DNA of 40,647 nt from a virus: the UHGV virus genome UHGV-0183130, one strand, 5' to 3'. Both the position numbers and the translations under genes were made by a program. Under the pieces are notes generated by a model. The model saw nothing but the letters and a program-made list of their open reading frames with translations, did not search any database and was not told the origin of the DNA. Positions 28,706 to 40,647 of this stretch are shown here, piece by piece. Each line of letters opens with the position of its first letter. The stretch's first letter is position 1.

Positions 28706-30591
28706 GCCACCTCCTGATGTTGCACTGCACACAGTTCCGGAAGATTTGCCTCCACCAGCGCCCTGGCGAATGGTGGTGGTACCGCATTACCACAGCGGGC
28801 TACCTGCTTATCTTTTGCATAGCGATTTCCACGGTAGTCCTGATCAATAACGTATCCATCCGGGAAGCCCTGCGCTTTGTAGAGTTCATGCGGCTGCAAC
28901 ATGCGCATTCCGATATCAACGATCTGGTATTTAACCCCATCGATCGTTACCAGCCATTCATCGTCACTTTCCCCGCAATACGTCTCGAGAAATGTGCGTA
29001 CCTCACCCACGTGTTGGCCACCAGAGGTGATTGTTGGCATGGGCACATCAAGACGTTGCCCGTCGCGGCATGTTCCACGCAGTTTCACCAAATGAGAGGC
29101 AACAACCGCATGATGATCGACAGTGGTCACTGAGTGTGCGGGTTCATCCATACTGACACCCGGTCCCGTATAGTTACCGCCGTAGTGTTTAGCCAGAAAC
29201 GCGCCCACCAATTGTGATTTACCTCCACCACCAGCTGTAATTGTGGCGCTCGGTTCGTCTGCCCGGTGGCCGACGCTGGCCCCAAACTGGCGGGCTATCA
29301 CTGGCGCAACAAGACAGGCGCGGGATTGCTTCATAATGGTATGAGCAGGTTTATCCAGCGGGCGCGGTTTAGCCTGGTATTCACTACCACCATTACCCGC
29401 CAGGAATGGCGTCAGTGCAGCCTCAACAATCCCGAGTGCATGCCCATTCCCACCCGGGCGTTTTGACGTGCCAGCGGTTACCGTCGGGACAGGTTCGGTA
29501 ACGGGCTGCCCGGTTGCCCCAGTGCGGAATTTTGTCAGGTGTGGAACAGCTAACGCGTAACCGTGGGTTTTAGTAATAGTTTGCAAAGGCTCGTCCAGCT
29601 TCTGACCACGGAAACAGTCGTAACTCGTTTTGGTGCTGGTGTGATTGCACTTCACGATAAACGGCGACGCACTTTCGATAACAAAGCGCTGTATGCCGCG
29701 CGCGATCCGCTTCAGCGTGTTCTCCGCCAGCGTTTTTTTGCGGTCGAAGATGGACAGGGCCGGAACATTCCAGTCGATACATTCCGCAGCGGTACGCCAT
29801 GGCATCAGCCTGCCGCTCTGCACCTCCAGAGACTTAGGATCCCCATGGGTAACTGCAGGCCACTGGATTGGGCAGCCATCGCAGCGCATAACCATGAAGA
29901 AGCGTTTGCGGATCGTCGGCGCGCCGTAATCACACGCGCGTAGTTCGCGATAATCAACATCATATCCAAGCCCATCCACCAGCTTTTGCGCCTGCTCGCT
30001 ACCTCTTTCGATAGACAGAAACTCACAAACCTCAGCCAGTGCCGGGTGATCAGCAGGAATACCAGTGGATAGCATGCCGACAAATGCCTCAAATGTTTCA
30101 CCAGCTCGTGCCGGATCCGGACGCTGCGCATCATAAGGCGGTATAACTGGGCCAACAAATGCAGCCAAATCATCCCCCACCAGATTGGGATTTTGTGGCT
30201 CAGCTGGTAATAGCGGTCCCCACGTTTTGAACTCTTCCACGTTCTCCAGCATCATCACGCGCGGTCGCTTTGCCAGTGCCCAACGCAGAACAATCCAGGC
30301 CAGACCGCGTATCTCTTTTTTCACAGGCTTGGCGCCTTTTGCCTTCGAGAAGTGTCGGCAGTCCGGGCTAAACCATGCCAGGCCGACAGGATTACCTCCG
30401 GTGGCGGCTACCGGATCCACGTCAAATACGGATTCGCAGTAATGCAGTGTTTCCGGGTGATTCGTCTTGTGCATCGCAATGGCGTTTTCGTCGTGGTTGA
30501 TCGCAATATCCACGCTGCGTCCGATCGCCAGTTCAATACCCGTTGATGCGCCACCGCCACCAGCAAAGTTATCAACGATAATCTCACGCAT
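28702..30591 (-). CDS. DNA (cytosine-5)-methyltransferase, orphan, with large extra region
   Basis: 629 aa; motif I-like DNFAGGGGASTG, PC-motif-like SPDCRHFSKAKG, ENV motif (MLENVEEF); no adjacent restriction endonuclease candidate. Confidence 0.7.
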   Translation of the reverse strand: MREIIVDNFAGGGGASTGIELAIGRSVDIAINHDENAIAMHKTNHPETLHYCESVFDVDPVAATGGNPVGLAWFSPDCRHFSKAKGAKPVKKEIRGLAWIVLRWALAKRPRVMMLENVEEFKTWGPLLPAEPQNPNLVGDDLAAFVGPVIPPYDAQRPDPARAGETFEAFVGMLSTGIPADHPALAEVCEFLSIERGSEQAQKLVDGLGYDVDYRELRACDYGAPTIRKRFFMVMRCDGCPIQWPAVTHGDPKSLEVQSGRLMPWRTAAECIDWNVPALSIFDRKKTLAENTLKRIARGIQRFVIESASPFIVKCNHTSTKTSYDCFRGQKLDEPLQTITKTHGYALAVPHLTKFRTGATGQPVTEPVPTVTAGTSKRPGGNGHALGIVEAALTPFLAGNGGSEYQAKPRPLDKPAHTIMKQSRACLVAPVIARQFGASVGHRADEPSATITAGGGGKSQLVGAFLAKHYGGNYTGPGVSMDEPAHSVTTVDHHAVVASHLVKLRGTCRDGQRLDVPMPTITSGGQHVGEVRTFLETYCGESDDEWLVTIDGVKYQIVDIGMRMLQPHELYKAQGFPDGYVIDQDYRGNRYAKDKQVARCGNAVPPPFARALVEANLPELCAVQHQEVA

Positions 30592-31465
30592 GGGTTACCC
30601 CCTGCATGCTGCCGACAAGACCACGCGCAATTGTGATAATTTCGCTGGTGGCCGTTCGTTCCAGCCAGAGTTGATTGATGTTGGCTTTCAGCTTGTTCTG
30701 CTGAGCCTCACTCAATACGTCAACGCCTTCCACCTGGTTAAACACCAGACCAACCTCGAGAGGCCAGATACGTGACTCAGTTTCCGATGGTATGACTGGC
30801 TCCTGGGGTGCTCGCATTGCAATTGTCGGCTCTTTGCCAACAGCGAATTGAGCCAGCGCCATAAATGCCCGACCTTTTGCCTCCAGTTCTGTGCGGTTGA
30901 TATAGCTGAACCGCTCACCACGCCATGACTTATCGAATACAGCTATGGCACCGGCAAAAAACGCGCTGGTGGGCTTCTGTTTTTCGTCAGCAGGTACAAA
31001 CCACACTGGCAGATCGAACCCAATGCGCCCGCGAATGAATACAATGTGATCGGCATCTTCCGGCCACCACGTTTCACTTGGCGCGGCTTTTATCAGGAAT
31101 ACATAGCGACCGCCCTTCTCGCACTGGGCTGCTGCGTACTTCATGATGTGCGTCATACCAGTGATCGCCTGTTTCTCGTGGTACTGCGAACGGCTATACG
31201 GTGGGTTGCCATAACCTGCGCCACCCAGTTCTGCCAGACGTTCAGACCAGTCCTGGGTCAGCGCGTTATCTTCGGCGGTGTACCATGCCGGGCATTTCGC
31301 GTTGTCGTCGTCAGCAAACAAATCCAGAACTAATGGACCAAATAGCGCGTTGATCCCCCAAAACAGCAGATCCGGTGTTCGCCACTGATCGCCAACTTCT
31401 TTCAATTCGTGAGCTGGTTTACTGCGCAGTTCTGCCAGCGACTGGCAATATTTATTTGGCATCAT
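30584..31465 (-). CDS. Phage-type DNA N6-adenine methyltransferase (Dam-like), orphan
   Basis: 293 aa; catalytic NPPY motif (GYGNPPYSRSQ); overlaps downstream MTase start by 8 nt. Confidence 0.65.
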   Translation of the reverse strand: MMPNKYCQSLAELRSKPAHELKEVGDQWRTPDLLFWGINALFGPLVLDLFADDDNAKCPAWYTAEDNALTQDWSERLAELGGAGYGNPPYSRSQYHEKQAITGMTHIMKYAAAQCEKGGRYVFLIKAAPSETWWPEDADHIVFIRGRIGFDLPVWFVPADEKQKPTSAFFAGAIAVFDKSWRGERFSYINRTELEAKGRAFMALAQFAVGKEPTIAMRAPQEPVIPSETESRIWPLEVGLVFNQVEGVDVLSEAQQNKLKANINQLWLERTATSEIITIARGLVGSMQGVTHA

Positions 31466-32669: not shown

Positions 32670-33221
32670 TTATTTCTCCATACTCGAAGAGTTGTTCGCC
32701 AAGGCGCCCGGAGCTGCACACTCGCGGGCGTCACTCTTTTCAGCGACACAAAAAACTCGATACAGAAGCGTTACGTGCTCCTGGAACTTAGCGATAACCT
32801 GATAGCTGTTTTCCTCAATCTGACCACGCTCATCTGCGTCAATTACCCCATCAGCCGTGGCTTTACGTACAAAATTCGAATGACGGCCTATCCATTCGAT
32901 GGACTCCATCAGGCGCTGATTTATATCGGCGTTATCCAGATCATCAACATCTGCCAGTGGTACAAATACGCCCTGAGAATGGCGCGCAACGGCATCAGCG
33001 ATATGAGTTGAACCACCAGCACGTTGTAAAACCATTGCCCAGCCCAGTGGGAAGATCTGGTCGCCGTCAACACGAAGGCGGTTAAACAATGCGTTCTCTG
33101 TCACGCCCAACCATTCCGCCGCCTCGGCATAACCACCAGGTAGATCGGTGATCGTTTTTTTTATCGCCGCTACCAGCCAGGCTGGCTGACGTTCGACTTT
33201 CCAAATAGGTTCGTTACCCAC
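32670..33221 (-). CDS. CII-position HTH regulatory protein (YdaT/CII-like), function uncertain
   Basis: 183 aa immediately after cro; GTG start with AAGGAG SD; HTH-like segment GGYAEAAEWLGVTENALFNRLR. Confidence 0.4.
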   Translation of the reverse strand: MGNEPIWKVERQPAWLVAAIKKTITDLPGGYAEAAEWLGVTENALFNRLRVDGDQIFPLGWAMVLQRAGGSTHIADAVARHSQGVFVPLADVDDLDNADINQRLMESIEWIGRHSNFVRKATADGVIDADERGQIEENSYQVIAKFQEHVTLLYRVFCVAEKSDARECAAPGALANNSSSMEK

Positions 33222-33243
33222 GGCTTACTCCTTTTTCCTGTGG

Positions 33244-33447
33244 TTACTGGTTAGCAGATACGCCTGTAACCTTGTGATATAGGGATGCGTCATACTTAAG
33301 TTTCCCATTAGTAATTCTCTCTATTACGAAGGCTTGCTTCTCAGGGATGACCTTTCCCCAACGACATACGGCAGGGTGTGAGATATTCAAAGCAACAGCG
33401 GTTTTAGAGATACCGCCAAAATGCTTTACGACTTCGGACTTATACAT
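33244..33447 (-). CDS. cro: Cro-like HTH repressor
   Basis: 67 aa, divergent from cI across the operator region; HTH-like SKTAVALNISHPAVCRWGK; SD GGAGG. Confidence 0.65.
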   Translation of the reverse strand: MYKSEVVKHFGGISKTAVALNISHPAVCRWGKVIPEKQAFVIERITNGKLKYDASLYHKVTGVSANQ

Positions 33448-33539
33448 AGTTCCTCCGGTGTGATGAATGAACCAAAGGTAACAAAAGGTACATTAAATAG
33501 CAAACAACAGTTACAAGCAAAGGGTGTAACATTGGTTAC
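33448..33539. promoter_or_regulatory. Right operator / divergent promoter region (OR, pR and pRM candidates)
   Basis: Contains AAAGGTAACAAAAGGTACATT (33474-33494), a motif repeated twice downstream of cI, and perfect palindrome GTAACATTGGTTAC (33526-33539) abutting the cI ATG (short-leader cI message possible). Confidence 0.55.
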
Positions 33540-34199
33540 ATGAAAACAGAGATGAAAGACCGCATCAGATCCAGACGAATCCAGCTGGATATAACCCAAT
33601 TAGCACTGGCTAAAAAGCTTGGTGTAAGCCGTGTATCGGTTACAAAATGGGAAAACGGCACGACAAAGCCTGATGGTGAGAACCTTCACCAGTTGGCTCA
33701 GGCTCTATCAACAACACCAGAGTGGATACTCTATGGAAGCGGTGATGAGGCCATTGACGACACGCGCGTCGTGCCTTTTTTGAAACCCCCTGTAGCTGTA
33801 CCGATCATATCGGCAGTTCAAGCCGGTTTATGGACGGATAGCTATGCCTGCTCAAGACTTACAGACGTGATTTCCTGGACTCAAACAACTGCAAATGTAT
33901 CGGATGAAGCGTTTGGGTTAGTAGTCCGCGGTGAGTCGATGACTAACCCGCAAGGACTTCCATCTATACCAGAAGGTTCTATTGTTATAGTCGAGCCCCA
34001 TTATGGGCAGCTTGATGATCTATATGGGAAAATAGTCGTTGCTATATTGGATGGGACATCAGAAGCAACGGTTAAAAAATTAGTTTGGGATAGCCCCTAC
34101 TCATACCTAATGCCACTGAATCCGTTATTTAAGCCAATCCAAATTGATGGTAACTGTCGCATTGTCGGAAAAGTTGTACAAATCACTCAAAACATTTAA
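33540..34199 (+). CDS. cI: CI-like repressor (HTH_XRE N-domain plus LexA/S24 autopeptidase C-domain)
   Basis: 219 aa; N-terminal HTH (ITQLALAKKLGVSRVSVTKWENG), C-terminal S24 features (VRGESM serine region, KK pair); divergent from cro. Confidence 0.85.
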   Translation: MKTEMKDRIRSRRIQLDITQLALAKKLGVSRVSVTKWENGTTKPDGENLHQLAQALSTTPEWILYGSGDEAIDDTRVVPFLKPPVAVPIISAVQAGLWTDSYACSRLTDVISWTQTTANVSDEAFGLVVRGESMTNPQGLPSIPEGSIVIVEPHYGQLDDLYGKIVVAILDGTSEATVKKLVWDSPYSYLMPLNPLFKPIQIDGNCRIVGKVVQITQNI

Positions 34200-34213
34200 T
34201 CCCTTCAAAATTA

Positions 34214-34240
34214 AGAGCCGAGCATAGCCTCGGCTTTTTT
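34214..34240 (+). terminator. Rho-independent terminator after cI
   Basis: AGAGCCGAG-CAUAGC-CUCGGCU hairpin (7-bp stem) followed by UUUUUU, 15 nt after the cI stop. Confidence 0.65.
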
Positions 34241-34244
34241 ACAT

Positions 34245-34340
34245 TCCCAAAGGTAACATAAAGTACATTACTCGCTTGACCGCAAAGGTAACTAAAGGTA
34301 CATTTAAATCATCAAACGTAATCATTGGTACGTTTGGTGA
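34245..34340. promoter_or_regulatory. Left operator region (OL) with candidate pL
   Basis: Two further copies of the OR motif (AAAGGTAACATAAAGTACATT 34249-34269; AAAGGTAACTAAAGGTACATT 34284-34304) plus GTAATCATTGGTAC; candidate -35 TTGACC (34276-34281) and -10 TACATT (34299-34304) with 17-bp spacer. Confidence 0.5.
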
Positions 34341-34367
34341 GGATAACAAATGCCTTGTACCACTATT

Positions 34368-34415
34368 CTGGCGGCCCGGTGTTTTCCCACTTGTCCGGTA
34401 ACCGCCAGCCTTTTT
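34368..34415 (+). promoter_or_regulatory. Structured leader hairpin with U-tract just downstream of candidate pL
   Basis: CTGGCGG (34368-34374) pairs with CCGCCAG (34402-34408) around an inner CCGG/CCGG stem, followed by CCTTTTTC; lies inside a doubtful 77-aa ORF (34350-34583). Confidence 0.4.
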
Positions 34416-34579
34416 CAAGGCACAACAGAAAAGGGCATCACCGGGCGACGGGCTCATAACCCAATCCACCCGGGCAAAAAGAAAGCGGTCTCTGCAAGCC
34501 GCCGACCAATGCAGGTGCCCTTCTCTGTTGTGTATGGAGAAAGTTCGGCGGTTGCAGCCGCCTTAACGAGGGTAAAACC

Positions 34580-34951
34580 ATGAGTAATGACCGCATGACC
34601 GTAGTGCCAGATTTTCTTGGCGAACTGGATGCCGGCGTGTTCATGAACAAAATCGCGGCAGCACTTAATACTACCGCGCTTGGCGTTCTGAACAACGGCA
34701 ACAAAGGCAAAGTAGTCCTCACATTTGATTTTGAGCGTATGGGTAATTCCGTTGAAGAGAAGCGCGTGAAGATCAAGCACAAGCTGAACTACAGCACCCC
34801 GACACCGCGTGGTAAAGCCTCCGAAGAGGACACAACCGAAACCCCGATGTGGGTCAACAAAGGCGGGAAGCTAACCATCCTGCAGGAAGATCAGGGTCAG
34901 CTGTTCGGGATCACTGGCGCGGTGGATGGAAAGCTTAAAGCGGCACAGTGA
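34580..34951 (+). CDS. Hypothetical early protein (YfdP-like by size and position)
   Basis: 123 aa, SD GAGGG; first convincing gene of the early-left operon; no N-like arginine-rich motif recognised. Confidence 0.5.
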   Translation: MSNDRMTVVPDFLGELDAGVFMNKIAAALNTTALGVLNNGNKGKVVLTFDFERMGNSVEEKRVKIKHKLNYSTPTPRGKASEEDTTETPMWVNKGGKLTILQEDQGQLFGITGAVDGKLKAAQ

Positions 34952-35007
34952 TCCGCAACAACAAACTCACTGATACCACTTTGATCATCAGTTAATAAGG
35001 AATTTTT

Positions 35008-35835
35008 ATGTCTCAGTTAGACAGCGGTACCTTCAAGCAGGTCAAAGACCTGGTTCTTTCAGGTTATCACCTGAATGATATTCATGGCCTGGCTTGCCCG
35101 ACCGCATTGCTGCCAGATGGTACTGGCGTTGAAAGCCTTGAGCGCTTTTCTCTGGAGCGTTTCCGCTTTCGTGGCGCAATGACCACAACCAGTATTGACG
35201 ACTTCGCACGTTATTCTAAAGGTTACGCCAGCGACAGTGAGCCAGCTCGTTGCTTCATTGACGCTGACAATATGACCGCCCGTTCAGTGTTCAACATCGG
35301 CACCCTGGATAATCCCGGTCACGCCGATAACGTTGCTTCAATCACCCTGAAGAAAACCGCCCCGTTCCGCGCGTTACTGCAGATCGATGGTCAACGTCTG
35401 AAGCAAAAGCAAATTGCTGAATGGCTGGAAGACTGGAGTGATTACCTGCTGGCGTTTGATGCCGATGGTAATACGATGCAGATTTCCCAGGCGGCTCAGG
35501 CAGTGCGTCGTATCACCATTCAACAAGCAACCCAGCAGGACCATGAAACTAGTGATTTCGCTGGTAAAAAATCCCTGATGCAAAGCGTTGAAGCAAGCAG
35601 CAAAGACGTAATGCCTGTGGCATTCGAGTTCAAATGTGTGCCGTATGAAGGTCTGGGCGAACGCCGCTTTAGCTTGCGTAACAGCCTGCTGACCAGCGAT
35701 GAACCCTGCTTTGTTCTGCGCATCATCCAACTTGAAGCCCAGGAAGAAGAGATCGCCAACGAATTCCGCGATTTGCTGATCAGCAAGTTCGACGGTGAAT
35801 CAGTGGAAACTTTCATCGGTAACTTTAAAGCCTAA
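35008..35835 (+). CDS. DUF2303-family protein (YfdQ-like)
   Basis: 275 aa with AAGGA SD; size and neighbourhood (before an HD-domain YfdR-like gene) match the yfdQ-yfdR pair recalled from E. coli prophage CPS-53. Confidence 0.5.
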   Translation: MSQLDSGTFKQVKDLVLSGYHLNDIHGLACPTALLPDGTGVESLERFSLERFRFRGAMTTTSIDDFARYSKGYASDSEPARCFIDADNMTARSVFNIGTLDNPGHADNVASITLKKTAPFRALLQIDGQRLKQKQIAEWLEDWSDYLLAFDADGNTMQISQAAQAVRRITIQQATQQDHETSDFAGKKSLMQSVEASSKDVMPVAFEFKCVPYEGLGERRFSLRNSLLTSDEPCFVLRIIQLEAQEEEIANEFRDLLISKFDGESVETFIGNFKA

Positions 35836-35847
35836 TTGCTCTGCATT

Positions 35848-35871
35848 AAATCCCCGGCGCCGCGGGGATTT
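35848..35871 (+). terminator. Strong hairpin (possible terminator/attenuator) after the YfdQ-like gene
   Basis: AAAUCCCCGG-CGCC-GCGGGGAUUU, 10-bp stem, followed by AUUG; weak U-tract, so termination efficiency is uncertain. Confidence 0.45.
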
Positions 35872-35963
35872 ATTGAAGCGTAATTCCATTAATTATCGCC
35901 AACCGGCGAGGGATTCGTGCAACCAAAATCTGCGCGGTGCAGCGCGCCAATATGGAGAAAACC

Positions 35964-36503
35964 ATGAGCTACATTCAGACATTATCCGGCAAACATTTTA
36001 ATTACCTCGATATCCAACAGGACGATATCGTGATCGAAGATATCGCTACCGCGTTGTCTCATATCTGCCGCTTTGCTGGGCATCTTCCTGAGTTTTACAG
36101 CGTCGGCCAGCATAGCGTTTTAACCAGCCATCTCGTTCCGCAGGAGTTTGCATTAGAAGCACTGCTTCATGATGCCGCCGAAGCATACCTGCAGGATATC
36201 CCCTCACCGCTTAAGCGCCTGTTACCGGATTACCAGGTGATCGAAGCTCGCGTAGACGCTGCTATTCGCCAGAAATTTGGCCTTCCTATGGAGCAACACC
36301 CAACCGTGAAATATGCCGATCTGGTGATGCTCGCCAGCGAACGCCGCGATTTTGAAATTGACGAAGGTTCCGTGTGGCCATGCCTCAATGGCGTTGTCCC
36401 GACGGACCTATTCATCATCAACCCAGTTCGTCCAGGCCAGTCATACGGCATGTTCATAAATCGCTTTAATGAGTTGATGGAGCAGCGCCAATGTGCCGCA
36501 TGA
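35964..36503 (+). CDS. HD-domain phosphohydrolase (YfdR-like 5'-deoxynucleotidase)
   Basis: Start at ATG 35964 (SD GGAG): MSYIQTLSGKHFNYLD...ICRFAGH...LLHDAAEAY fits HD-domain metal-binding His/Asp pattern and remembered YfdR. Confidence 0.6.
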   Translation: MSYIQTLSGKHFNYLDIQQDDIVIEDIATALSHICRFAGHLPEFYSVGQHSVLTSHLVPQEFALEALLHDAAEAYLQDIPSPLKRLLPDYQVIEARVDAAIRQKFGLPMEQHPTVKYADLVMLASERRDFEIDEGSVWPCLNGVVPTDLFIINPVRPGQSYGMFINRFNELMEQRQCAA

Positions 36504-36667
36504 AGGTAAAAGAACTCGTAGCGGAGGCTTTTGCCTCCGTTGCTGAATTGCCACCAAAGCATGCACCGCTTATGCGCGAAGTCGCCACCAGACTGGACAC
36601 TACGTTCGCAGCATTAAAAGAGTCTCTGGTGCAACTGGAACAGGAACGTAAAGGTAAAACGCCATGA
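36500..36667 (+). CDS. Small ORF (55 aa), translationally coupled on both sides
   Basis: ATG overlaps the YfdR-like stop (ATGA) and its stop overlaps the next ATG (ATGA); MKVKELVAEAF...; below the ORF-track length cut-off. Confidence 0.3.
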   Translation: MKVKELVAEAFASVAELPPKHAPLMREVATRLDTTFAALKESLVQLEQERKGKTP

Positions 36668-36918
36668 CCGTATTTGAATATCTCCAGGCTCATCCGAATA
36701 CCACCAGCGGTGAAATCGCCAAAGGTATGAACAAAACTACGCCAGCGGTCGCCGGAGCATTATCGCAACTCTATGGCACAGGCCGGATCGTGAAGTCTGG
36801 TGTTCGCAAGGGCATTCCAACATACCGTGTTAACGATATGCCGTTTGGGTGTAGTAACAGCCTAACCATGATGTTTAACCAGCTATTGAATAGAGCCAGA
36901 CAGGGAAGCGCGCTATGA
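36664..36918 (+). CDS. Small winged-helix DNA-binding protein (MarR-like wHTH)
   Basis: 84 aa; FEYLQAHPNTTSGEIAKGMNKTTPAVAGALSQLYGTGRIV is a typical wHTH recognition-helix/wing layout; coupled (ATGA) to flanking ORFs. Confidence 0.45.
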   Translation: MTVFEYLQAHPNTTSGEIAKGMNKTTPAVAGALSQLYGTGRIVKSGVRKGIPTYRVNDMPFGCSNSLTMMFNQLLNRARQGSAL

Positions 36919-37991
36919 GCAAATCGAGTATGGAGTATTACTTCGAGTTCCCTGCCTCTCGCGGCTTGCAGGGGGATACGCTTATTCTTTTGATGAACGT
37001 TCCAGGACGAACCCTATCCCGCGTACTGGCATCTGATAATTACGGACACACGCTTGAGCGTTCTCAGCGTGAACTCAATAAATCACGCGTAAAAAATTTT
37101 TACGAATACCTAGTGGCAGCTGCTGAAAATAAGGAGCCTTTCATCATCCCACCACTGGTTGGTAACTGTGCTTCACATGTGGAGTTTGAAGAGTTCGGCA
37201 ATACAAACGTAGGCGTTGTTCGGTTCCCAATGGACGCAGAAATTAAACTTTTTGATGGGCAACATCGTGGTGCAGGTATAACCATGTTCTGCAGAGAATA
37301 CGATACACCCCTGTTTGTACCTTTGATGATGACTCTGCAACTACCACTGAAGACACGCCAGCAATTTTTCTCTGATATCAATAACAACGTATCTAAGCCT
37401 TCTGCAGCAATAAATATGGCTTATAACGGCAGGGATCAGGTTGCCCAGACAATGGTGTCATTCCTCTCCACTCACTCAGTGTTCTCCGAGATCACCGATT
37501 TTGAACACAGCGTGGTTCCGGCAAAAAGTGACCTCTGGATTAGTTTTAAGGCCGTTGGTGATGCAACTGCTAAATTCGCGGGTAACGGGGACGATGCGCT
37601 GTCTACTGGCGATATTTATGACCTTTGGGAAGCGTGGCTGAAGCTGACGGCTATTGATGGTATCCGACACGGTGTATCACCAGCTGAATACAAGCGAGAT
37701 TACATCCAATTCCATGCGGTGATGATCAATGCGTTTGGCTATGCAGTCCAGGAACTACTGAGGCGTCGCCCTGCGCATATCATCGTGCAGATGATCGAAG
37801 AACTGGTAACAAAAGCCACAATGACCGAGCTGGAAGACTTCTTCCTTATCTCTTCATGGGATGGTGTTTGTGCTGATGCCAGCAAAGAAAGAGCCACGGT
37901 AATTGCCAGCGTTCCGGCACAGAAAGCTGCAGCACAAAGGCTTGCAATGGCTATCACAGCAGGGACATTCGCAATGGAGGCAGCCCAATGA
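36915..37991 (+). CDS. DGQHR-domain protein (DndB-like / ParB-like fold)
   Basis: 358 aa with the signature FDGQHRGAGI; coupled by ATGA overlaps to the wHTH gene upstream and the Ea22-like gene downstream. Confidence 0.6.
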   Translation: MSKSSMEYYFEFPASRGLQGDTLILLMNVPGRTLSRVLASDNYGHTLERSQRELNKSRVKNFYEYLVAAAENKEPFIIPPLVGNCASHVEFEEFGNTNVGVVRFPMDAEIKLFDGQHRGAGITMFCREYDTPLFVPLMMTLQLPLKTRQQFFSDINNNVSKPSAAINMAYNGRDQVAQTMVSFLSTHSVFSEITDFEHSVVPAKSDLWISFKAVGDATAKFAGNGDDALSTGDIYDLWEAWLKLTAIDGIRHGVSPAEYKRDYIQFHAVMINAFGYAVQELLRRRPAHIIVQMIEELVTKATMTELEDFFLISSWDGVCADASKERATVIASVPAQKAAAQRLAMAITAGTFAMEAAQ

Positions 37992-38458
37992 CAGCACTCA
38001 ACAAACAGGCGCTGCGCCAAACAGCAGAGAAAGCCACCCAGGGCGAATGGTGGTCCGATGTTGTCGAAACTGACGGTGAATACGGCGAGGGTGAAGACAG
38101 AGCGTCTGGATACCACTCATACGCGGTTTACGTCGGTAGCGAGTCATTGCTCGACATGACCAATTCCACAGCAGCGTGCATTCACGAAGAGTTGGATCAC
38201 GATTACCACATGGCTTGGGATGAGACAGCCAAACGCAACGCAGAATTCATCGCCGCCGCTAACCCTGCCACTGTGCTGGCGCTGCTGGATGAGCTGGAAA
38301 TTGCAGAGAAGCGCATAGCAGAACTGGTGGCGCGGACCGTGACGCTGCCGACGCCGTACCCGAAAGGTTACGGGCTAGTTTCTGATAAATATAACTTTGC
38401 ACTGGAAGAATGTGCCGACGCAATCCGCGCCGCTGGCATTGGCGTGAAGGGGGAATGA
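37988..38458 (+). CDS. Ead/Ea22-like protein
   Basis: 156 aa; C-terminal AANPATVLALLDELEIAEKRIAEL resembles the conserved motif of Ea22-family phage proteins. Confidence 0.45.
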   Translation: MTALNKQALRQTAEKATQGEWWSDVVETDGEYGEGEDRASGYHSYAVYVGSESLLDMTNSTAACIHEELDHDYHMAWDETAKRNAEFIAAANPATVLALLDELEIAEKRIAELVARTVTLPTPYPKGYGLVSDKYNFALEECADAIRAAGIGVKGE

Positions 38459-38931
38459 TGGCAGAGCAAATAATTTTGGATGTGTGTTGTGGCTCCCGCA
38501 TGTTCTGGTTCAACAAGCAGGACACCCGCGCCGTGTTCACTGATATCCGCGCCGAAGAGCACGAACTGTGCGACGGTCGCCGCCTGGTTATCAGTCCAGA
38601 CCTGATTGCCGACTTTCGTTCATTGCCGTTCGCTGATTCTTCTTTTCCGGTTGTGGTGTTTGACCCGCCGCACCTGGAACGCGTGGGCCAGTCTGCCTGG
38701 ATGGGTAAAAAGTACGGGCGATTGAACAAAAAAACGTGGCGTTCTGATTTGCGCGCCGGTTTCAAAGAAGCGTTTCGGGTGCTGTGGCCACGCGGCGTGC
38801 TTATTTTCAAATGGAACGAAACACAAATCCCAGTTAGCCAGATTCTGGCTCTTACAGATGTGAAACCTGCAATTGGTCAGCGTACCGGGAAGAACGACAA
38901 AACCCACTGGATTATCTTTGTGAAGGACTAA
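38455..38931 (+). CDS. Small amino-methyltransferase-like protein (DPPH motif), putative DNA methyltransferase (YfdM-like)
   Basis: SAM-binding-like ILDVCCGSRMF and catalytic-type VVVFDPPH motif; ATG overlaps upstream stop (ATGA). Confidence 0.55.
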   Translation: MMAEQIILDVCCGSRMFWFNKQDTRAVFTDIRAEEHELCDGRRLVISPDLIADFRSLPFADSSFPVVVFDPPHLERVGQSAWMGKKYGRLNKKTWRSDLRAGFKEAFRVLWPRGVLIFKWNETQIPVSQILALTDVKPAIGQRTGKNDKTHWIIFVKD

Positions 38932-38934
38932 CCC

Positions 38935-39237
38935 ATGACAACTAACAACCACCCGGCGCACGGTCCTGTATCACTCGATCGCCTGCACCAGATACACGAA
39001 ATACTCAGCAAAGCAGTAGCACAAAGCGACGGCGGTAATCTCGGCTACGCAATGGCTGATGCTGTGAAGGTGATTGATGGGGCTATTGCGGCGTTTGATG
39101 CTGAGCCTGTGGCTGACGTCGTGGCATGGTCATCGCCGAACGAGGAAAGAACCTGCGATATCCGATGGCGTCATCACGATGTTGCGCCTGGTCCGCTCTA
39201 TGCTGTCCCACTTATGCCAACCAGCAGTAAATTATAA
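38935..39237 (+). CDS. Hypothetical protein
   Basis: 100 aa ORF with GAAGGA SD between the methyltransferase-like gene and xis; no recognisable motif. Confidence 0.4.
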   Translation: MTTNNHPAHGPVSLDRLHQIHEILSKAVAQSDGGNLGYAMADAVKVIDGAIAAFDAEPVADVVAWSSPNEERTCDIRWRHHDVAPGPLYAVPLMPTSSKL

Positions 39238-39278
39238 TTTTGTAAGCCCGGGTGCAGCCGGGTTGTATGGAGAAAATA

Positions 39279-39515
39279 ATGTCGCGAATGATCCCTTTAC
39301 TTGACTGGGCAAAAGAGGAATTTGGAGAGCAAGCACCAAGTGAACGCATATTGAAAAAATATGCAAAGGGAAAAATGATGGCTCCTCCAGCAATTAAGGT
39401 TGGTCGCTGCTGGATGGTTGATCGTAATGCCCGATTTGTAGGAATGCTTGCAGAACCGAAAATTCCGACTTCGGCCAGCCCAAGATTACAACGGATAATT
39501 GCTGATGGCTGCTAG
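39279..39515 (+). CDS. xis: Excisionase-like protein
   Basis: About 78 aa from ATG 39279 (SD GGAG); immediately upstream of and overlapping int; KVGRCWMVDRNARFVG fits small excisionase DNA-binding proteins. Confidence 0.5.
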   Translation: MSRMIPLLDWAKEEFGEQAPSERILKKYAKGKMMAPPAIKVGRCWMVDRNARFVGMLAEPKIPTSASPRLQRIIADGC

Positions 39516-40647
39516 ACCACGCACTCACAAAATACCAATCCCTAACCTGTACTGCAAATTGGATAAGCGCACCGGTAAGGTATATTGGCAATATAAACAT
39601 CCTATTTCAGGTCGTTTTCACAGCCTTGGAACCGATGAATCCGAGGCTAAACAAGTCGCCACAGAAGCTAACATAATCATAGCTGAACAGCGAACTAGGC
39701 AGATCTTGAGCGTGAATGATCGCCTGGCACGGATGAAAGGCAGGCGCACTGATATTACGGTTACTGAGTGGCTCGATAAATACATAGGCATTCAGGAGGA
39801 AAGGCTTAAAAATAACGAGCTTAAACCAAACTCCTTTCTTCAAAAAGGTAAGCCTGTCCGTTTATTCAGAGAACACTGCGGCCTGCAGCATCTAAAGGAT
39901 ATTTCAGCTCTCGATATTGCAGAAATAACTGATGCCATTAAAGCCGAAGGCCACAATCGCATGGCTCAGGTAGTTAGAATGGTGCTCATCGATGTTTTTA
40001 AAGAGGCGCAACATGCCGGACACGTTGCCCCCGGATACAATCCGGCGCAAGCCACTAAGCAACCGAGAAATAGAATAACAAGGCAGCGTCTTTCCTTTGA
40101 TGAATGGAGTGTTATTTATAAGACGGCGGAACAGCAGCAGCCTTATCTTCAGTGTGGCATGTTATTAGCCCTAATCACTGGTCAGCGTCTTGGTGATATA
40201 TGCAATATGAAATTCACCGATGTATGGGATGACATGCTCCATATCGAGCAGGAAAAAACAGGTTCTCGTCTGGCTATTCCGTTAGATCTTAGATGCGAGG
40301 TGCTGGGCCTCACTCTCAGGGATGTTATTTCAAAATGTCGGGATGCGGTTGTCAGTAAATATCTTGTCCATTTCAGGCACACCACATCCCAGGCCAATAG
40401 AGGTGATCGAGTGTCGAGCAGCTGCCTGACATCCACTTTTAAAAAAGCCAGAGACAAAAGCGGCCTAGAGTGGAAAAACGGTACGCCCCCAACTTTCCAT
40501 GAACAGCGTTCTTTATCGGAGCGACTGTATCGTGAACAGGGTCTGGATACTCAGAAACTGCTGGGGCACAAGTCCAGAAAAATGACGGATAAGTATAACG
40601 ACGATCGAGGGAAAGACTGGGTCGTTGTTGGGGTAAAAACGGGGTAA
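39505..40647 (+). CDS. int: Tyrosine integrase, lambda Int family
   Basis: C-terminal catalytic region parallels lambda Int (ITGQRLGDICNMKFTDV, PPTFHEQRSLSERLY, LLGHKS, DKYNDDRGKDW); track ORF begins at TTG 39499, first ATG at 39505; stop codon is the last three bases of the window. Confidence 0.85.
   Translation: MAARPRTHKIPIPNLYCKLDKRTGKVYWQYKHPISGRFHSLGTDESEAKQVATEANIIIAEQRTRQILSVNDRLARMKGRRTDITVTEWLDKYIGIQEERLKNNELKPNSFLQKGKPVRLFREHCGLQHLKDISALDIAEITDAIKAEGHNRMAQVVRMVLIDVFKEAQHAGHVAPGYNPAQATKQPRNRITRQRLSFDEWSVIYKTAEQQQPYLQCGMLLALITGQRLGDICNMKFTDVWDDMLHIEQEKTGSRLAIPLDLRCEVLGLTLRDVISKCRDAVVSKYLVHFRHTTSQANRGDRVSSSCLTSTFKKARDKSGLEWKNGTPPTFHEQRSLSERLYREQGLDTQKLLGHKSRKMTDKYNDDRGKDWVVVGVKTG

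Follow-up and report, generated by a model that had tools for sequence, protein, structure and literature searches.

A stand-alone DGQHR/DndB-family gene in the mosaic early-left operon of a lambda-like prophage

The virus genome UHGV-0183130, analyzed here over a window comprising the whole stretch of 40,647 nucleotides, harbors six plus-strand open reading frames (ORFs) in succession at positions 35964–38931, joined at all five junctions (36500, 36664, 36915, 37988, and 38455) by ATGA start/stop overlaps. The genes encode an HD-domain 5'-deoxynucleotidase homologous to YfdR (35964–36503, 179 aa), a small protein (55 or 58 aa, depending on the start codon), a winged helix-turn-helix (wHTH)-like protein (36664–36918, 84 aa), a stand-alone protein of the DGQHR/DndB family (36915–37991, 358 aa), an Ead/Ea22-like protein (37988–38458, 156 aa), and a small orphan DNA methyltransferase (38455–38931, 158 aa). 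Both the gene calls and the five overlaps, as given in the first-pass annotation of this DNA, were confirmed on the sequence and the ORF list. That annotation went on to read the six genes as a single functional module for DNA modification or anti-defense, and the question raised by the locus is whether its genes belong together or merely lie together. The analysis argues for a mosaic early-left operon carrying the DGQHR gene as an autonomous single-gene cassette, an overall account that is considered probable. The genes were not found to be co-conserved and their overlaps are of a generic kind, and the proposal of a single module was given up.

Conservation of the neighborhood had been set beforehand as the test that could refute the six-gene module, and it showed that the components assort independently. 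The comparison covered 109 DGQHR loci from reference genomes, IMG/VR, and phage records, with homologs 27–99% identical to the DGQHR protein of the window. The HD gene was present in 13 of them, the small ORF and the wHTH gene in five each, an Ea22 match in two (adjoining the DGQHR gene in one of the two), and the window-type methyltransferase in one. A single locus, L031, contained all four upstream genes from HD to DGQHR, and no locus among those examined, other than the window, held all six genes together; each gene was found without the others. The reciprocal test took the best 80 loci for each of two methyltransferases. The DGQHR gene was found in 0 of 80 loci of the window-type enzyme (83–96% identity, the best 80 of more than 600 IMG/VR matches) and in 2 of 80 loci of the MT-A70 enzyme whose gene comes after DGQHR in phage SPN1S. 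The slot directly upstream was filled by 33 different gene clusters for the window-type methyltransferase and by 15 for the SPN1S-type enzyme.

Pairwise DNA comparison located the joints. Three related loci (L112, L113, and L115) are homologous to the window as far as 36925, and homology returns at 38473; in between, a 113-aa phrog_6675 gene, itself joined by overlap, replaces the DGQHR and Ea22 genes. In L031, homology runs through 38010 and returns at 38908; its DGQHR gene is 99% identical to that of the window, its Ea22 gene has been exchanged independently of DGQHR, and the window-type methyltransferase has been lost. Escherichia coli Nissle carries the HD gene, the small ORF, and the wHTH gene at ∼94% nucleotide identity, followed by different genes. 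Judged from these alignments, the pattern is that of lambdoid mosaicism with joints at gene boundaries, and the genes are independently exchangeable cassettes. The IMG/VR genome 2922317101 was seen to contain three related prophages (L032, L049, and L113), two of which encode a DGQHR protein (98 and 78% identical to that of the window), the other having the backbone and methyltransferase of the window without a DGQHR gene; at the sequence level, this trio shows free movement of the DGQHR cassette.

The overlaps, on which the proposal of a single module had leaned, are not peculiar to this chain. At least six further 4-nt overlaps join same-strand ORFs elsewhere in the window, and in 92 distinct DGQHR neighborhoods of other elements the 4-nt overlap was the commonest junction (46 upstream and ∼32 downstream), whatever the neighbor. 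ATGA overlaps are the usual gene packing of such operons and no sign of shared function. The first junction is itself ambiguous, as the small ORF could start at ATG 36500 (36500–36667, 55 aa) or at ATG 36491 (36491–36667), which has a better-placed GGAG and would give a 58-aa product with a 13-nt overlap with the HD gene; the RefSeq start of the E. coli Nissle homolog is the equivalent of 36491. The overlaps and the lack of a promoter-like site within the chain are those of a coupled operon, the coupling itself being a prediction from sequence. A translationally coupled module with interdependent parts would account for five successive ATGA overlaps and for nucleotide-pool, DNA-binding, ParB-fold, and methyltransferase functions in one place. 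It fails because the neighborhood analysis shows no co-conservation; with no second complete locus, joints at each junction, and generic overlaps, it is scarcely credible.

The six genes instead make up the distal portion of an early-left (pL-type) operon that is under repressor control in a lambda-like prophage. A LexA-family cI-like repressor is encoded at 33540–34199, and two copies of a 25-nt operator-like repeat (34248–34272 and 34283–34307) lie just past it, with a third (33473–33497) between cro and cI. The first two copies lie over a plus-strand promoter-like site, TTGACC-17-TACATT at 34276–34304, and together form a candidate oL/pL at 34248–34307. This is the sole promoter-like site upstream of the chain, and the promoter scan found none between 34304 and 39351, hence none within the chain. 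Three weak plus-strand hairpins were returned by the terminator scan within the chain, all inside coding sequence. The end of the arm is formed by an excisionase gene (39252–39515, plus strand; Pfam Exc, 9.9e-6) and a tyrosine integrase gene (39499–40647, plus strand, from the ORF list), the listed ORF of the latter stopping at the last base of the window. The excisionase–integrase (xis–int) pair is 97–100% homologous to that of L112 and L113. The earlier assignment of the chain to a temperate phage's early operon proved correct. By inference from its layout, the operon should be silent in the lysogen and switched on after induction or infection.

The DGQHR protein is a genuine member of its family, as first proposed, with 191.6 bits to TIGR03187 (cut-off 58.85; 2.2e-56) and 161 bits to the DndB family PF14072 (cut-off 29.1; 4.8e-47). 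Against the DndB equivalog TIGR03233, it scored 111.3 bits (E = 5e-32), and because the cut-off of that model is 328 bits, it is no DndB ortholog. It falls into phrog_7901 (8e-202), a family without assigned function. Alignment of 20 homologs revealed the invariant motifs RSQRE (residues 49–53), PPLVGNC (79–85), the arginine motif FDGQHR (113–118), FFxDINNNxSKP (151–162), DFEH (195–198), and QFH (265–267). The AlphaFold model (mean predicted local distance difference test score, 79) comprises a beta-rich N-terminal domain, which as modeled is a ParB/Srx-type nucleotide-binding fold, and a helical C-terminal domain; low-confidence loops contain most of the DINNN motif and some of RSQRE. A sequence search of the PDB found no homolog of the protein, and at the Pfam level neither a nuclease nor any further effector domain was found. 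Among 1.8 billion representatives searched by profile, 805 clusters proved related (80 below 1e-30). Fusion partners were considered as a clue to function, and the longer relatives among the 805 (430–660 aa) were found to have no second Pfam domain. Homologs are common in Enterobacterales (Citrobacter, Salmonella, Klebsiella, Enterobacter, Escherichia, Serratia, and others), occurring in 321 of 5,426 complete E. coli genomes, and relatives are encoded on at least 189 IMG/VR stretches.

The protein shares with DndB (DptB, the dndBCDE regulator) the PF14072 and TIGR03187 matches, the invariant DGQHR motif, and a ParB/Srx-like N-terminal domain followed by a helical domain. It differs from DndB, besides falling below the equivalog cut-off, in its setting: instead of heading a dnd operon, the gene belongs to an early operon in phages and neighbors ssb and antirestriction genes in plasmids. 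The PADLOC matches in the chain are to DndB and methyltransferase models only, without dndA/iscS, dndC, dndD, or dndE. For the other window ORFs of at least 100 aa, 25 of 41 Pfam families are listed, all of them typical of phages except Dam, and no TGT or Que family is among these listed matches. No Dpd-named family appears among the NCBIfam and PADLOC matches of the DGQHR protein, the presence of a DpdB model in these collections being unchecked. The earlier statement that Dnd and Dpd/Que partners are absent thus agrees with the PADLOC and listed Pfam matches.

Host genera involved here include carriers of dnd. The DGQHR protein might on that ground be pictured as aimed at phosphorothioate defenses (Dnd, Ssp), for instance as a DndB mimic acting on dnd promoters or on phosphorothioate-sensing components, and its family membership would fit, DndB being reported as a repressor of the dnd operon (PMC4507180; PMC8569181). 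A score of 111 bits against the 328-bit DndB cut-off speaks against such mimicry, and repressing modification genes would be of no obvious use to an invader; targeting of this kind is distinctly improbable.

A partner nearer at hand would be the methyltransferase. No universal partner of the DGQHR gene was found among the loci examined. Downstream, Ea22, several methyltransferase families, HTH proteins, PsiA, and a deoxynucleoside triphosphate pyrophosphohydrolase each form a minority. Upstream, HTH_ParB is found in 14 of 91 and DUF1317 in 8, the remainder being small unknown genes; about one-quarter of the loci have a ParB-HTH protein (phrog_1033) immediately before DGQHR. A small HTH protein as an obligatory partner (the wHTH protein, phrog_323, a KorA-like, or a ParB-HTH protein) was considered and the claim dropped, no such family being general; the idea is kept as a lead. 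A DNA methyltransferase occupies position +1 or +2 in ∼39 of 110 DGQHR loci. Five families are represented (MT-A70, Dam PF05869, D12, N6_N4, and the phrog_954 type) in at least 12 upstream contexts, and also beside 27–35% identical homologs in Rheinheimera, Alkalimonas, and Shewanella. The window methyltransferase truly lies at +2; selection of same-strand ORFs merges or drops the Ea22 gene of the window.

This adjacency, reaching remote homologs, would suit a DGQHR protein that serves as a trans-acting ParB-fold partner, loading or stimulating a methyltransferase such that the DNA of the element is methylated early and escapes restriction, and fusions of ParB-fold domains to methyltransferases are reported to be enriched in prophages (PMC12704722). 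On the other side, ∼64 of the 110 loci have no recognized methyltransferase within 6 kb, L031 has retained DGQHR without the window-type enzyme, and the two methyltransferases tested reciprocally almost always occur without DGQHR, behind a hypervariable upstream slot. We regard a partnership of this kind as unlikely. Because these methyltransferases occur nearly always without DGQHR and the upstream slot is variable, a shared accessory hot spot where the early-left operon ends accounts for the adjacency at least partly. In the account favored here, the enzyme at 38455–38931 is an ordinary orphan phage DNA methyltransferase that functions independently of the DGQHR protein.

In ∼21 loci, a phrog_323 regulator-like protein stands between DGQHR and the methyltransferase. 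Its 154-aa form has DGQHR directly upstream in 19 of 20 loci, all of one close lineage. Trios of DGQHR, a phrog_323 "D5-like" regulator, and a methyltransferase (Dam, MT-A70, or N6_N4) were observed in L272–L291, L009, L087–L094, and others, and one phrog_323 form gave weak matches to GcrA and sigma-70 region 4. The phrog_323 regulator and the methyltransferase may constitute a unit of their own.

Homologs of the DGQHR protein occur in many temperate phages and extend to plasmids. A translated search of PLSDB retrieved ∼41% identical homologs from 1,061 plasmid records, most of the matches being full length; 881 of the records are typed as conjugative, and 564 come from Klebsiella. In IncL/M plasmids, a 427-aa DGQHR gene lies in a co-directional block adjoining the relaxase genes mobA/traI, in the order RadC-JAB, HTH, DGQHR, DUF4942, Hha, DUF1380, Antirestriction (PF03230), and ssb. 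An IS1 element splits the gene in many near-identical 63,589-bp IncL/M Klebsiella plasmids (L295 7001–9045, NZ_CP068920.1), and larger IncL/M relatives carry it intact. In L014–L017 (Buttiauxella, Dryocola), a 438-aa homolog is placed directly upstream of psiA (L014 5998–9484), with an Antirestriction-family gene ∼900 bp further on in L014. In leading regions, psiB would be expected at the place that DGQHR holds upstream of psiA. In MOBF plasmids (L292/L293), parA–parB is followed by DGQHR and then by a TrfB/KorA-like DNA-binding gene, a layout that recalls the KorA–KorB pairing and, by analogy, hints at a regulatory clamp role. Plasmid leading regions, with ssb, psiA, and antirestriction genes as hallmarks, are enriched in anti-defense genes and orphan methyltransferases (PMC11541004). 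DndB/DGQHR is absent from the text of that study, one seven-member family appearing in a supplementary table. The arrangement suggests that plasmid DGQHR genes occupy a putative first-entering block rich in antirestriction genes.

The plasmid context also bears on a role in the service of the lysogen, with the DGQHR protein acting as a prophage defense or superinfection-exclusion factor. The plasmid homologs are found with ssb, antirestriction genes, and psiA, not among defense genes. In the prophage, the gene lies within a repressor-controlled early operon and has no promoter-like site of its own. The protein carries no nuclease or effector domain, and PADLOC recognizes it solely as DndB. A lysogen defense role is very improbable.

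The locus resembles the plasmid leading-region anti-defense islands (PMC11541004) in being a first-expressed, co-directional, high-turnover block with orphan methyltransferases and many small unknown genes, and the plasmid homologs of DGQHR sit among ssb, Antirestriction-family, and psiA genes. The features of an early-entry island were found in its first-expressed location in a pL-type operon, in the high turnover of its cassettes, and in the ssb/Antirestriction/psiA context on plasmids. It differs from those islands in that the anti-defense activity of the DGQHR family is only proposed, from position. In the account favored here, that of an autonomous DGQHR cassette, the protein would be produced early after induction or infection and, as DndB, KorB, and ParB do, might bind ATP or GTP as well as DNA. 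A DndB-like bacterial protein is reported to bind ATP and GTP (PMC12704722). Working alone on incoming or replicating DNA of the element, it could serve as a regulator or protective factor that aids establishment or counters defenses, either by KorB- or DndB-like regulation of transcription or through protection or marking of element DNA. It is set apart from KorB/ParB-type nucleoside triphosphate (NTP)-gated clamps, including the orphan ParB-fold proteins (PMC12704722), by the lack of any match to the ParBc (PF02195) or ParB HTH models and of an identified parS-like site or ParA partner.

The idea of a DGQHR protein acting alone in antirestriction or establishment is somewhat strengthened because its homologs occur in plasmid ssb/antirestriction/psiA blocks and often, not obligatorily, beside methyltransferases. 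An establishment or anti-defense role for the protein is put forward tentatively. The wider possibility, held with as much reserve, is that stand-alone DGQHR proteins are an unrecognized establishment or anti-defense class common to the early operons of temperate phages and the leading regions of conjugative plasmids. As a class, they might be NTP-gated DNA-binding switches on incoming element DNA that shield it, silence genes, or recruit modification enzymes before defenses act.

Several points weigh against the account favored here. The establishment or anti-defense role is read from genomic position only, and a literature search found nothing specific on stand-alone phage or plasmid DGQHR/DndB-like proteins. 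The methyltransferase adjacency in ∼39 of 110 loci could be a functional link and not a shared hot spot, and DGQHR and phrog_323 may be a two-gene unit in some lineages. The promoter scan was crude consensus matching. In the 63.6-kb IncL/M plasmids, the DGQHR gene is dispensable because it is split by IS1.

The domain labels first given to the remaining genes of the chain (HD, wHTH, Ea22, and methyltransferase), like that of DGQHR/DndB, proved right in profile searches against Pfam, TIGRFAM, PADLOC, and PHROG. The HD protein matched phrog_318 (7e-96), with a weak YfbR-like Pfam match, and is 63% identical over its full length to YfdR of E. coli K-12, annotated as a 5'-deoxynucleotidase. The small ORF matched phrog_12248 (2.1e-32); in E. 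coli Nissle, as in further prophages, it accompanies the HD gene. The wHTH protein matched phrog_1687, labeled "MarR family" (1.3e-24), and gave weak HTH_24, FaeA, and MarR matches in Pfam. The Ea22-like protein matched Pfam Ead_Ea22 (1.3e-18). The methyltransferase, with motif I close to its N-terminus and DPPH at residue 70, was recognized by PADLOC (MTase_II, 2.3e-71; oMTase, 1.6e-48) and by phrog_954 (7.6e-85), and a sequence search of the PDB found no homolog. A kinship with the DGQHR-adjacent enzyme of SPN1S, which is of the MT-A70 type, was considered and rejected for lack of similarity. A 42-nt segment of the methyltransferase gene (38793–38834) is 93% identical to "DNA methyltransferase" genes of 26 Vibrio phages; outside it, the gene has no DNA-level match to those phages, and the segment is probably a conserved motif region.

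Upstream of the chain, the operon follows the left arm of the K-12 prophage CPS-53 (yfdP–yfdQ–yfdR–yfdS–yfdT–torI), with the same order of YfdP, YfdQ, and YfdR at 57–63% identity and then an excisionase. The yfdP-like early gene (34580–34951, plus strand; phrog_204) encodes a protein 59% identical to YfdP of CPS-53, and the yfdQ-like gene (35008–35835, plus strand; Pfam DUF2303, 1.7e-66) one 57% identical to YfdQ. Unlike CPS-53, the window has the small ORF, wHTH, DGQHR, Ea22, methyltransferase, and a 100-aa ORF in place of yfdS and yfdT. This 100-aa ORF (38935–39237, plus strand; phrog_6144, 2e-9) marks the end of the variable zone and adjoins the methyltransferase in L111–L115. The small ORF and the wHTH gene were compared with YfdS and YfdT as possible relatives, and no similarity was found. 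YfdR reportedly binds DnaA, and overexpression of yfdQRST is reported to inhibit replication initiation (PMC4776307).

Two candidate structural elements were observed ahead of the chain. Between the candidate pL and yfdP, at the place of lambdoid antitermination (nut/put-type) RNA elements, a long imperfect inverted repeat (34400–34437/34516–34553) has 38-nt arms that are 79% complementary and separated by 78 nt; it gave no Rfam match, and the Rfam scan of 33000–40647 as a whole gave none. Directly before the chain, where 128 nt separate yfdQ from the HD gene, a G+C-rich 10-bp hairpin followed by AUUUAUU (35847–35872) could be an intrinsic terminator needing antitermination for readthrough; its fold z-score is −2.0, and it is unlisted by the terminator scan. 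The rest of the window is that of a lambda-like siphovirus, with Nu1, terminase gpA, portal, capsid E, tail Z/U/L, tape measure, Q antiterminator, and lysis genes. In the early-right arm, a minus-strand ORF of 293 aa (30584–31465) contains NPPY at residue 87 and is the only other ORF with an NPPY/DPPY-type motif. One Dam match (PF05869, 1.2e-43) and one Phg_2220_C match in the Pfam results of the window were assigned to it by this motif, and the phage probably encodes two orphan methyltransferases.

The six-gene module is not worth pursuing as a system, and the operon itself is ordinary. What remains is a widespread branch of the DndB/ParB fold without Dnd or Dpd partners, situated in the parts of mobile elements whose genes come on first after entry, and its single DGQHR gene is a reasonable experimental lead. 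If the protein is indeed an establishment or anti-defense factor, a nucleotide-switch protein would join a field made up mainly of small inhibitor proteins and DNA mimics, and the finding could bear on the spread of plasmids between hosts.

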